A stretch of DNA of 64,000 nucleotides. It comes from an uncultured Methylomirabilota bacterium (GTDB taxonomy: Bacteria; Methylomirabilota; Methylomirabilia; Methylomirabilales; 2-02-FULL-66-22). A program made the position numbers and the translations under genes. The DNA lies in the NCBI GenBank assembly GCA_963705305.1, contig OY970067.1, positions 992,001 through 1,056,000 of the forward strand, read 5' to 3'. The notes under the pieces are model-generated. The model had not been told where the DNA came from, made no database searches, and was given only the letters and a program-made list of their open reading frames with translations. Below, in pieces: positions 3 to 3,047 of this stretch (positions are counted from its first letter, which is position 1; every line of letters starts with the position of its first letter).

Positions 3-1310
3 GTCCAGGACCGCCTGCTCGAGCCGCCCTTTCAGCTCGCCGATCTGCGGCCCGGCAGGAATGCCGCAATGCTCCATGATAGCCTGCCCGATGCCTTTGG
101 GCAGGAGGGGACCCCGGCCGTCCTTCTCGGCGAGCTCGGCGGCCCGGTGTTCCAACTCGGCCAGCCGTTTCAGCACACCCTCGCGCACCCCGGGCCGGTG
201 CGAGGTGACATCGGCCCGGCTGAGGTCGAGGAGATCCCCGAAGGCCTCCCCCGCGTCCCGCATCAGCCGCCGGACCGCGCCGTCCGTCCAGTCCCCTTCG
301 TACAGGGCCGGCCGTTGATGCAGCGCCACCAGCGTCCGCACCCGCTGGTGCAGCGCCCGGTCGAATCGAAAGCGGCCGGCCGCATCGTCGACGATCCCGA
401 CCCCCACCATCTCGTGGCCATAGAAGTGGACGTCGCCGGCCGCATCCACCGATCGCGTCGTGACCTTCCCGGCGTCGTGCAGCAGGGCCGCCCAGCGCAC
501 AGGAAGCCGCGCCGGCGATTGCGCCACCACCGCCACCGTGTGCGGCCAGAGCGCCTTATGGTGAAAGCGCCCCTGATCCGCCTTGAATTCCACCGCCCCG
601 TGCACTGCCGGCAGGAGATGGGCCAGCAGGCCGCTCCCCGCCAGGAAATCCAGGGCACGATCCACTGCCTGCCCCACCAGGAGCTTGTTCATCTCCACCA
701 GCCAGCGCTCGCGGCTGACGCTGAGGATCTCGACCGCCAGGTCGCGCACACCCTCCACCAGCTCTGGTTCGGGCTGCATGCCGAGGGTGGCGATGAACCG
801 GGCGGCGCGCAGCGTGCGCAGCGGGTCCTCCCGGAAGATCACCTGCGGCTCGCCCACCGTCCGCAGAACCCGCCGTCCCAGATCCCGCCCGCCCCCGAAG
901 GGGTCGATGAACTGCCGGTCCACGGTCATGGCGATGGCGTTGATCGAGAAGTCCCTCCGGGCCAGGTCCGCCTCCAGGTCCGTGCCGAACGTCACGCGGG
1001 GCCTGCGGCTGCCGTTGACGTACACCTCACCGCGGAAGGTCGTGACCTGCACCTCCCGCCTGATTCCCTTCTCCTCCAGGATCGTTCCAACCGTTCCGAA
1101 GCGGCTGCCCACCGTGAACACCGGCAGCCCGCCGCTGCGCAAGACACGGGCACTGTCTTCCGGCAGGGCGCTGGTCGCAAAGTCCAGATCCCTCAGCTCA
1201 TCCAGCGGCGTGCCGCTCAGATGGTCGCGCACGGCCCCGCCCACGAGGTACAGCTCGTATCCCGAGCGGGCGAAGAGATCGAACAGCCTGTGCATCAGAG
1301 ACGTGGACAT
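3..1310 (-). CDS. cca: CCA tRNA nucleotidyltransferase with HD domain (runs off the left edge; absent from the ORF track)
   Basis: Manual translation from ATG 1310 gives MSTSLMHRLFDLFARSGYELYLVGGAVRDHL. It contains DLDFAT, DLARRDFSINA, EDPLR and the HD-domain motifs LLHDAGK and HFYGHE. Confidence 0.9.
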   Translation of the reverse strand, partial: MSTSLMHRLFDLFARSGYELYLVGGAVRDHLSGTPLDELRDLDFATSALPEDSARVLRSGGLPVFTVGSRFGTVGTILEEKGIRREVQVTTFRGEVYVNGSRRPRVTFGTDLEADLARRDFSINAIAMTVDRQFIDPFGGGRDLGRRVLRTVGEPQVIFREDPLRTLRAARFIATLGMQPEPELVEGVRDLAVEILSVSRERWLVEMNKLLVGQAVDRALDFLAGSGLLAHLLPAVHGAVEFKADQGRFHHKALWPHTVAVVAQSPARLPVRWAALLHDAGKVTTRSVDAAGDVHFYGHEMVGVGIVDDAAGRFRFDRALHQRVRTLVALHQRPALYEGDWTDGAVRRLMRDAGEAFGDLLDLSRADVTSHRPGVREGVLKRLAELEHRAAELAEKDGRGPLLPKGIGQAIMEHCGIPAGPQIGELKGRLEQAVLD

Positions 1311-1355
1311 AGTGCGGGCGCCTCGACCCACGGCAGCCGCCGGGGGCCTGGAGAC

Positions 1356-1388
1356 AAAAAGCCCTAAGACCCGGAGGCCTTAGGGCTT
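1356..1388 (-). terminator. Intrinsic terminator about 45 nt upstream of the cca start
   Basis: Minus strand reads AAGCCCTAAGgcc-tccg-ggtCTTAGGGCTT-TTT: a long stem ending in a T-run. Confidence 0.8.
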
Positions 1389-1570
1389 CAAGAAATTGCA
1401 ACAGACGGCCCGATGATGCCTAAGGCTCCCTTCCGGCACGGGACGGACCGGGTGCAAAGACCGATGGGAAGCAGGCGAATTGCGCTCCTCCCACACCGAC
1501 CTGCCGGTCCCGCCCAGCGCGTTTGTGGCGATCGTGCCGCACGTTCAGGCTCTCCCTGGGTCAAAAAGCG
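1356..1570 (-). ncRNA. Unannotated structured leader RNA / riboswitch-like element
   Basis: Bounded by a sigma70 promoter and a terminator. Nested complementary blocks: GCCTGA/TTAGGC, CGGCAC/GTGCCG, GGGCGGGACCGG/CCGGTCCGTCCC, TGGGAG/TTCCCA. Confidence 0.55.
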
Positions 1571-1575
1571 GCTTG

Positions 1576-1604
1576 ACTATCCTTCAGCACCAATGCCGTG
1601 TCAA
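1576..1604 (-). promoter_or_regulatory. sigma70-type promoter TTGACA-N17-GATAGT
   Basis: Perfect -35, 17-bp spacer and a plausible -10. Confidence 0.65.
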
Positions 1605-1635
1605 GGAGAAACGGTCGCCGGCCGGGACCGGGGGC

Positions 1636-2205
1636 TCAGGGTGCCGCCAGCAGGTCCTCCAGGAGCTGGCGCATGGCTTCGTAGCTGGTCGAACCAACCT
1701 GGGATTTCACGATGCGCCCATCCTTGGTCGCCAGGAAGAAGGTGGGAACTCCCTCCAGACGGTAGGCATCGGCGATGCTTTGGTTTCCCACGAGGTAGGG
1801 CCACGGATGCTTTTCCAGCCGGGCAAAGGACTGGATGCGAGCCACATCCCGGTGGAACCCCACGGTCAGGAACTGGATGCGCTTCCCATACTCCGCATAC
1901 AGTCGCAGGAGGATGGGCGCCATGTCCTGGCAGTGGGGGCAGTCGGGGGACATGAATTCCAGGAGGAGTGGCTTCCGGCCCAGGAACTCCTCCAGGGTGT
2001 GGGCATGCCCATCTATGTCCCACGTGGCGAAGGGCTGGACGGAGGTCAGCGGGGTCTCGGCTGCGAGTGCCGACCCCGAACCGGGCAGAAATCCGGTGAG
2101 GCCAATTGCCACCCCAACCACCACGGCCAGCCGCACAAGACGTCGGACCGCGCGCGACCGGAGCACGCCCGGTTCGAGAGACCTTTCGATTCGATGGTCA
2201 CGCAT
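1636..2205 (-). CDS. Exported TlpA/redoxin-family thiol:disulfide oxidoreductase
   Basis: Signal peptide, LLEFMSPDCPHC, and GVPTFF cis-Pro loop. Confidence 0.85.
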   Translation of the reverse strand: MRDHRIERSLEPGVLRSRAVRRLVRLAVVVGVAIGLTGFLPGSGSALAAETPLTSVQPFATWDIDGHAHTLEEFLGRKPLLLEFMSPDCPHCQDMAPILLRLYAEYGKRIQFLTVGFHRDVARIQSFARLEKHPWPYLVGNQSIADAYRLEGVPTFFLATKDGRIVKSQVGSTSYEAMRQLLEDLLAAP

Positions 2206-2749
2206 GATTCGTCTCGATTTCCCCCGTTGCCGACGCCGCTCGCCAGGCCAGCACCGCCGCTACGAAGGCGCCAGCCAGCAAGGCCAGGGCCGTCAGGCAG
2301 TACGGACAGGCCGCACCGATCACGAACACTTCTATCCAGGTCATCCCGAGCTCATAGGCCAATCCGCAGCCCGCCGTCAGCGCGAGGATGCCCGGCAGCC
2401 GGTGGAGGCTTCGCCCCCCGCCGGCCAGCCGCCAGGCCGCCAGGCCGAACAAGAACGCGAAGCCCAGCAGGCCGATCAGGGCCACCGGGATTCCGGCAAT
2501 CTCCGCGTACGGGCTGGCCAGCACCTTATCGCACGAGATGGTCTCCGTAAAGCTGCACAACCCCCTCTTGGGGTTGCCCGCGATCACCAGGTGCAGGTGC
2601 AGCAGGTACGCGGCGACCCCCGCCCCCGCCAGCGTGAAGAGCAGGACGAACACGAGGCTCCGTCGCTCTCGGGTCGTTACTCCGCCTCCGCCAGGAGGGC
2701 CAGAAGCCGGCTCGAATCCCCCTTCCGTCTTCATGCGGTCGTGCGGCAT
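2198..2749 (-). CDS. Vitamin K epoxide reductase (VKOR) family protein
   Basis: Loop Cys pair LCSFTETISCDKVLASPYA, GIPVA, ACPYC and about 4 TM helices. Confidence 0.88.
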   Translation of the reverse strand: MPHDRMKTEGGFEPASGPPGGGGVTTRERRSLVFVLLFTLAGAGVAAYLLHLHLVIAGNPKRGLCSFTETISCDKVLASPYAEIAGIPVALIGLLGFAFLFGLAAWRLAGGGRSLHRLPGILALTAGCGLAYELGMTWIEVFVIGAACPYCLTALALLAGAFVAAVLAWRAASATGEIETNHA

Positions 2750-3047
2750 GGAATCTTCTCCCGGATATGGTCGCCCATCTTTATACCGCATGGACGGACT
2801 CATCGCAACAGTGCGGGCTCAGGACGGCGCATAGGCGCGCCGAACCGCACATGTCTCTCTCGGGCCGGCGGCCCGCCCTCGAGACGCTGCATCATGCGGA
2901 TTTCTCTCCCCCATGGGAGAAGGCCCGCCTATCGTGAAGAACCTGGGATGTGAGGGGGCAGCCCGGAGGGTCGGAGAAGACGGGGCTCACGCTGCCGGAT
3001 AACGACGCAACCGAGATCACGGCGATGTCTCAGCCCATCCTCGCCGC

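Follow-up and report, generated by a model that had tools for sequence, protein, structure and literature searches.

In the attenuators of amino-acid operons (trp, his, pheA, thr, leu and ilv type), the position of the ribosome picks either a terminator or an alternative hairpin. To our knowledge, little is known about the control of the CCA-adding enzyme level in bacteria. The stretch of DNA analyzed here, below called the window, comprises 64,000 nt of contig OY970067.1 (GenBank assembly GCA_963705305.1, positions 992,001 to 1,056,000 of the forward strand) from an uncultured Methylomirabilota bacterium, and it carries a leader element directly upstream of a gene for a putative CCA-adding enzyme, cca. 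The structural features of a leader-peptide attenuator, that is, a leader open reading frame (ORF), a terminator and a predicted alternative pairing, are present in this window. We consider it most likely, with moderate confidence, that the 5' leader of the cca mRNA is a ribosome-dependent transcription attenuator.

The cca leader and the amino-acid operon attenuators have in common a promoter, a short ORF led by a Shine-Dalgarno sequence (SD), a terminator before the structural gene and, by prediction here, an alternative hairpin that excludes it. Unlike these attenuators, the cca leader has no run of codons for a single amino acid, its frame is long (40-41 codons) and free in sequence, its stop codon is part of the proposed antiterminator strand, the gene presumably controlled belongs to tRNA repair, and there exists a sister class of leaders lacking the ORF. 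By mechanism, it can also be likened to PA5471.1-armZ of P. aeruginosa, a general sensor of translation stress, where full translation of the leader peptide is reported to lead to the terminator and stalling to read-through, as is proposed here for cca. When cca is deleted in P. aeruginosa, ribosomes stall more on PA5471.1 and the attenuation of armZ is relieved (PMC13041342), and thus a leader frame can report the loss of CCA-adding activity. PA5471.1-armZ controls an efflux-pump regulator, while here cca itself would be controlled, closing the loop; the organism and the leader length differ as well. In the literature searched (full text), no leader, attenuator or riboswitch is described for cca, "Rokubacteria" and "riboswitch" occur together nowhere, and no regulatory RNAs are described for this uncultured lineage (Methylomirabilia).

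All features of the element are on the minus strand. The leaders of the genus fall into class A, with the promoter TTGACA...GATAGT (10 long forms, this window among them), and class B, with the promoter TTGCCG...TACSGT (11 long forms). The parts listed below, their conservation, the constraint on the frame and its length, and the complementarity of the motif M2 to the terminator arm in this window were all computed.

1599..1604, minus strand: -35 hexamer TTGACA (10/12 consensus positions for the whole promoter)
1576..1581, minus strand: -10 hexamer GATAGT, separated from the -35 hexamer by a spacer of 17 nt
1550..1556, minus strand: Shine-Dalgarno-like GGGAGAG, 7 nt before GTG, seen in the sequence; an equivalent purine motif with ATG/GTG is found in 7/7 main class A leaders
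1420..1542, minus strand: leader ORF with a GTG start at 1542, 40 codons and a TAG stop at 1422-1420, peptide MRHDRHKRAGRDRQVGVGGAQFACFPSVFAPGPSRAGREP
1418..1434, minus strand: motif M2, GGAAGGGAGCCUUAGGC, purine-rich, holding the TAG stop; putative 5' strand of the antiterminator, from alignment and pairing energy
1387..1419, minus strand: spacer of 33 nt from the TAG stop to GCCC of the terminator stem, kept in length and not in sequence
1356..1388, minus strand: intrinsic terminator with a 13-bp stem, a UCCG loop and UUUUU (1360-1356), from folding and pair counts
3..1310, minus strand: cca-like gene for a class II tRNA nucleotidyltransferase, the gene presumed controlled; the ORF runs off the start of the window

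The original prediction had placed a TTGACA-N17-GATAGT promoter here, and this site has held up: with 10 of 12 consensus positions, it is the sole promoter-like site in 1000-3000, where 0.1 are expected from shuffles. The exact pattern occurs twice in the host genome (5.6 Mb, 98.9% complete), and the same -35 hexamer with the 17-nt spacing is found in all 15 class A leaders, whether long, mid or short. From the usual distance of 6-8 nt to the -10 hexamer, transcription would start near 1569, giving a predicted leader of about 215 nt that ends in the intrinsic terminator. The second occurrence of the pattern in the genome lies outside the window (G000:C1:1529310-1529687, minus strand); a terminator-like hairpin, GGACCCG...CGGGTCC followed by TTTTT, stands there about 45 nt past the promoter, and after it come an SD and a gene for an RRM-type RNA-binding protein (RGFAFVE motif). 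By its sequence, this is a predicted second promoter-hairpin-gene leader of the genome.

The strong terminator that had been claimed for the leader is likewise borne out. The hairpin is AAGCCCUAAGGCC/UCCG/GGUCUUAGGGCUU (1388-1359), followed by UUUUU; it folds at -21 to -24.9 kcal/mol, 45 nt separate its end from the cca ATG (1310), and it occurs once in the genome. Sequence and folding thus give a G+C-rich hairpin directly before a U tract, as in an intrinsic terminator. A simple terminator scan of the window left this hairpin unlisted, and its support comes from folding and from comparative pair counts. In the 21 long leaders 99.1% of the stem cells are paired, the changes being compensatory (G-C/A-U), and the covariation score is reached by 0/500 shuffles. 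Of the covariation suggested as a check in the original prediction, the part that concerns the terminator stem was found, while the pairing of M2 with the terminator arm has none (70.5% of cells paired vs 70.3% in shuffles).

The genus set consists of 21 genomes, 18 of which have cca; the three genomes with no cca match are 68-87% complete. A promoter and a terminator are present upstream of cca in 18/18 of the cca-holding genomes, with the conserved terminator sequence GCCCYRRGG...CYYRGGGC. Among at least nine loci of the same genus from metagenomes (taken from 9 of 64 parts of the metagenome collection), 8/9 carry the element, the exception being L026. In total, the promoter and the sequence-conserved terminator precede cca at 26/27 loci of the genus. 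The 27 loci include the near-duplicate pairs L009/L033 and L017/L028; L025 has the same sequence as L023 and was excluded. A search of genome contigs with the cca protein yielded a single locus, identical in sequence to L023.

A covariance model spanning M2, the spacer and the terminator (R1) gives one strong hit per genome, always at the cca locus, and a single hit in this genome. In 73 distant cca loci (at most 54% identity) it has no hits, and 130 further genomes of the class yield only five, all weak (26-31 bits). Within this set of genomes and loci, the element was seen in one genus only. The gene upstream of it is not conserved: a thioredoxin-like neighbor of cca is seen in this window alone (1/19 loci). 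The promoter and terminator thus stay linked to cca while the upstream neighbor changes, which we count in favor of control of cca. Moreover, in L018, L019, L009, L031 and L032 the terminator ends 17-24 nt before the cca start; such a gap is too short to hold a separate cca promoter, so the polymerase must pass the hairpin.

These observations bear on the alternative that the element encodes a standalone or dual-function small RNA (sRNA) of about 215 nt that acts in trans, with cca expressed by leakage through the terminator. A near-consensus promoter, a strong terminator and conserved G-rich motifs would suit it, a terminated product would accumulate in any case, and relatives have paralogous cassettes at a second locus (see below). 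However, the linkage to cca is strict despite the changing neighbors, cca has no room for its own promoter in several relatives, the body of the leader is highly variable and repeatedly lost while the promoter and hairpin are kept, and no conserved single-stranded seed is visible beyond M2. Nor would the GGA motifs have a CsrA to titrate, as the genome has no PF02599 match, and a CsrA sponge of the CsrB/RsmZ type was rejected for the same reason. We therefore regard an sRNA as unlikely.

The reading frame distinguishes the long class A leaders. In this window, GTG at 1542 is the sole ATG or GTG within the first 70 nt of the leader, and the TAG stop of the frame lies within M2, the strand complementary to the terminator 5' arm. 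An SD-led ORF of at least 30 codons arises in 34/500 dinucleotide shuffles of this leader. Such an ORF, starting with ATG or GTG, is present in 9/10 long class A leaders (40-41 codons in eight of them and 36 in L011), and any ORF of this kind turns up in 24-98 of 500 dinucleotide shuffles per sequence. In the seven main class A leaders the ORF starts 26-34 nt past the -10 hexamer and ends at the M2 TAG, and in 7/7 of them, representing five lineages, the first SD-preceded start of the leader is in frame with this TAG. The distance from start to stop is 120 or 123 nt throughout; length differences in the 5' untranslated region (26-34 nt) and in the spacer (31-34 nt) are not multiples of three. 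The conservation of an SD-led frame that ends in the antiterminator strand points to ribosome-mediated attenuation. The unpaired purine-rich segments that the original prediction had taken for parts of a folded RNA turn out to be the SD site GGGAGAG (1556-1550) and the end of the reading frame; unpaired purine-rich stretches of GC-rich leaders may, more generally, be sites of ribosome binding.

The encoded peptides, on the other hand, are nearly unrelated across lineages, with almost no residues in common. The ratio of nonsynonymous to synonymous substitution rates (dN/dS) in the leader frame is 0.98 for L015 vs L020 and 0.85 for L030 vs L031, and the G+C content of third codon positions (GC3) is 0.57-0.73 in the leader frames vs 0.87 in cca. 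The leader peptide belongs to no Pfam family and has no homolog among proteins of 22-70 residues. Near-neutral dN/dS values, low GC3 and unrelated peptides fit a regulatory frame rather than a functional protein, and selection seems, from these comparisons, to act on translation over a set length and not on the product.

It is consequently very improbable that the leader is simply a small-protein gene, with a functional product of 40 residues, the hairpin as its end and cca co-transcribed at a low level. The SD, start codon, conserved length and terminator would all be expected of such a gene, and the paralog pair L117/L123 has a dN/dS of 0.39, but the values given above for the frames at cca do not fit it, with GC3 well below that of real genes. 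Besides, the "RRxIVG" peptide stretch conserved in the paralogs is the site of a perfect RNA hairpin, CGACGA-GNNA-UCGUCG.

The second element of the proposed switch is M2, with the consensus GGRGGGGCNUAGGC in class A and GAGGGRAGCGSCUKMAGGC in class B. The original prediction had this strand form an antiterminator incompatible with the terminator, and in this window the energies agree with it: among all upstream 20-nt windows, the one holding GGGAGCCUUAGGC (1430-1418) is the top partner of the terminator 5' arm, with a pairing energy of -18.1 kcal/mol vs a median of -9.6 over the upstream windows. When the nascent transcript of this window is folded, the minimum-energy structure likewise has M2 paired to the 5' arm. 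Over the 21 long leaders, the core pairs of the antiterminator are formed in 15-20 sequences. M2 and the terminator are 29-33 nt apart in the ten leaders counted (six of class A and four of class B), and the distance from the stop codon to the terminator is 31-34 nt in 7/7 main class A leaders and 32-34 nt in five paralogous cassettes.

From these parts we infer translation of the frame, a direction of the switch and a physiological signal, as follows. Transcription would start at the conserved promoter and produce a leader with the SD and the 40-codon frame, the sequence of the peptide being irrelevant. A ribosome keeping pace with the polymerase up to the stop codon would cover M2, the terminator would form, and transcription would stop 45 nt before cca. 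If translation lagged or failed, free M2 would capture the 5' arm ahead of synthesis of the 3' arm, allowing read-through into cca. Fewer intact tRNA 3' ends would slow translation and yield more of the tRNA-repair enzyme, making a feedback loop, in which the conserved length of 40-41 codons would set the length of the course over which ribosome and polymerase compete. The nascent folds (to the terminator loop) accord with this in part. Pairing of M2 with the arm is seen in this window in the no-ribosome state, in L007, L015 and L020 in all three states, and in L008 in one state, and with a ribosome mask at the stop codon the terminator is retained in all seven class A folds.

Several observations weigh against ribosome-dependent attenuation. 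Some concern the pairing: besides its lack of covariation, M2 ranks first as the partner of the 5' arm in only 7/21 long leaders, this window included, and is not the best partner in the others; the pairing is weak in L030, L031, the L010 group and several class B leaders, and is absent from the nascent folds of L030 and L031. In the paralogous cassettes the pairing is weak as well, the M2-like motif not being complementary to the terminator arm. In this window, the antiterminator is absent from folds that model a stall at codon 8 or 20, so that the direction proposed for the switch is tentative. Other observations concern the frame. A comparable ORF is found in 0/11 class B leaders, though they share M2, the spacer and the terminator, and the close class B relatives L012, L014 and L021 are frameshifted relative to one another, so either class B works by another mechanism or the frame is inessential. 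Two lesser frames of class B, a mini-ORF "M-P-stop" in overlap with the terminator arm and, in four leaders, a frame of 20 codons, were rejected as not conserved across the class. Next, inspection of the leader peptides reveals no conserved runs of regulatory codons, their arginine content being, by estimate, close to the level predicted from GC; a general sensor of translation rate would need no such runs. Finally, the whole body with the ORF has been lost at least three times and hence is, judging by the tree described below, dispensable.

The original prediction saw in the leader body a long nested rod, possibly that of a new riboswitch. Its three complementary segment pairs do exist; the minimum-energy fold, however, takes another outer register, and the body alone is no more stable than its dinucleotide shuffles (z = -0.01, with a mean of -0.50 over 21 homologous leaders; z = -2.23 with the terminator included). 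Across lineages, no alignment of the class A bodies is possible, and a BLASTN search of the 271-nt element against 40 relatives matched the terminator alone, in 2 genomes. Class B bodies contain two covarying hairpins (87.5% of cells paired vs 81.0% in shuffles, the score being reached by 0/500 shuffles), which are not a multi-helix core common with this window.

No known RNA family accounts for the element, just as had been claimed. The Rfam 15 search of the whole window gave no matches at the gathering score, and the E-value mode gave chance-level matches only (best E 0.076; 20.9 and 20.3 bits vs gathering scores of 80 and 60). The sub-threshold candidates mir-7918, ar7, htlv_FSE, sot2652 and IRES_VEGF_A are all driven by the terminator hairpin and were rejected as chance-level. 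The element is similar to a T-box in being a terminator/antiterminator leader before a tRNA-related gene; unlike a T-box, it has no match to that family at the gathering score or at E up to 10, no Stem I or T-box features, and an ORF. Its size and rod-like predicted fold recall 6S RNA and the RNA of the signal recognition particle (SRP), both being rods of 100-200 nt, and the GCCGGAAGGGAGC stretch looks superficially like SRP domain IV. Both RNAs were rejected, since neither model matches here and both are located elsewhere in the genome with scores above gathering: a genuine 6S RNA at G000:C1:4757152-4757341 (87.2 bits), and SRP RNA at C1:1355410-1355509 (68.9 bits).

A riboswitch binding a metabolite, an ion or tRNA, whose aptamer decides between antiterminator and terminator and in which the frame is incidental, is therefore quite improbable. 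It draws on the presence of a terminator/antiterminator expression platform, on the formal possibility of a new class where no known family matches, and on class B, where the two covarying hairpins occur in leaders lacking the ORF and the M2-terminator spacing is conserved too. What speaks against it is that a conserved aptamer core with covarying helices is not found, that the unaligned and unremarkably stable bodies described above have been lost at least three times, that conservation of an SD-led frame and its length is unexpected for an aptamer, and that the element, by the R1 searches, keeps to one genus.

The losses are seen in the leaders that consist of a promoter and a hairpin only, namely four short ones (44-60 nt: L009, L033, L034 and L023), in which the hairpin immediately follows the promoter, and one of medium length (98 nt: L018). 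In the tree of cca proteins, short L009/L033 are sister to long L030/L031 (support 98/94), short L034 is sister to L015/L020 (100/97), and the element-free L026 is sister to L007 (96/87). From these positions, the body or the entire element was lost independently three times or more. The U run has one U in L009/L033 vs four in their long sisters, and the weakest stem is that of L023 (-10.5 kcal/mol). The weaker terminators of the short forms suggest that the body normally counteracts the terminator, although the trend is weak and some long forms also have poor U tracts.

The short forms also speak for yet another alternative, in which the hairpin is a constitutive brake on cca mRNA or stabilizes its 5' end, the body is neutral, and neither the frame nor the alternative pairing plays a regulatory part. 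In L009/L033, L034 and L023 the promoter and hairpin alone are kept, the body being dispensable; the hairpin sequence is the best-conserved part of the element; and the genome has the other promoter-hairpin-gene leader before the RRM-type gene. We nevertheless give this explanation a low probability, since the frame, its 40-41 codons and the 31-34-nt spacing are kept despite near-saturated divergence, M2 is conserved in both classes, and the short forms tend, if weakly, to poorer terminators. Ribosome-dependent attenuation remains the preferred reading.

A second locus type was recovered through weaker R1 hits in the relatives (29-39 bits). Of the eight regions examined, five carry a cassette, and these represent three lineages:

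L117:873-1136, cassette in G018
L123:874-1137, cassette in G014
L118:868-1091, cassette in G005
L119:917-1140, cassette in G010
L124:859-1080, cassette in G020

The R1 hits in L120 and L122 are ordinary gene-end terminators and were discarded. The layout of the cassettes consists of a TTGAM-N17-TATNAT promoter, an SD, an ORF of 31-32 codons, a TAG in an M2-like motif, 32-34 nt, and a terminator. Every cassette contains the perfectly conserved hairpin CGACGA-GNNA-UCGUCG mentioned above. The cassettes stand upstream of a small conserved protein of about 75 aa with an RWGWFR motif, which belongs to no Pfam or NCBIfam family. In this genome, neither the cassette (R1) nor the RWGWFR protein (tblastn) was found.

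The stop codon is UAG in 12/12 ORF-bearing leaders, seven of them at cca (window 1420-1422, L007, L008, L015, L020, L030 and L031) and five in the paralogs; UAA and UGA never occur. An SD-like G-rich run stands 2-6 nt ahead of the UAG in all ORF-bearing leaders, and in the paralogs pairing with the terminator arm cannot account for this SD-like-plus-UAG motif. One possibility is that the exclusive use of UAG reflects dependence on release factor 1 (RF1).

Taken further, and only tentatively, the leaders of both loci could form a family of "race-timer" attenuators, with sequence-free frames of fixed length (about 40 codons at cca and 31-32 at the second locus) and an SD-like-plus-UAG end 31-34 nt before the terminator. 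At cca, such an attenuator would make a homeostatic loop, maybe with a readout of RF1, and class B would be an RNA-only sensor on the same platform.

If the leader does act as such a loop, it would be the first dedicated cis-regulator of cca. Damaged or CCA-less tRNAs would slow the leader ribosome, the antiterminator would win, and more CCA-adding enzyme would be made, so that translation capacity would feed back on the tRNA-repair enzyme in a simple homeostatic circuit. The leader would further illustrate selection on a frame for length and position instead of codons.

The need for cca in this organism can be considered from its tRNA genes. Of 53 predicted tRNA genes, a simple check flagged 46 as encoding CCA, the one for tRNA-Val(UAC) being flagged wrongly. 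As most tRNA genes encode CCA, cca would be mainly a repair enzyme here, and a low, inducible level reasonably suits such an enzyme. The 3' CCA is not encoded in tRNA-Leu(CAA), tRNA-Arg(CCU) and tRNA-Val(UAC), located at G000:C1:552102-552187, 4207101-4207176 and 1744941-1745013, respectively; upon inspection, the leader frames make no consistent use of sensor codons for these tRNAs. A second copy of tRNA-Leu(CAA) at 4044163 looks degenerate, and four unflagged ARAGORN predictions of 87-98 nt look spurious.

The gene is termed cca by its predicted domains and a family match below the cut-off. In particular, a Pfam search identifies the PolyA_pol head, PolyA_pol_RNAbd and HD domains in the product, and its best NCBIfam match is TIGR02692, "CCA tRNA nucleotidyltransferase", with 328 bits, below the cut-off of 438.8. 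The gene order, from upstream to downstream, is a VKOR-family gene (2803-2198), the thioredoxin-like gene (2205-1636), an intergenic stretch of 325 nt, and cca from ATG 1310. The VKOR-family gene encodes a membrane protein and lies on the minus strand, overlapping the thioredoxin/TlpA-like gene by 8 nt; the product of the latter has a signal-anchor-like N-terminus, and together the two look like a disulfide-bond-forming pair, which the relatives do not keep beside cca.

Two relatives have local peculiarities. In L029 (1085-1125) the terminator 5' arm has a 6-nt tandem duplication (CTGAGG CTGAGG) relative to its close relatives L010 and L011. In the metagenome relative L027 (500-1200) the leader is 249 nt from cca and has long, repeated hairpin elements on either side, e.g. 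AAGCCAGCATTGTTCGCG...CGCGAACAATGCTGGCT, which look like repetitive extragenic palindromes (REP) or miniature inverted-repeat transposable elements (MITE).

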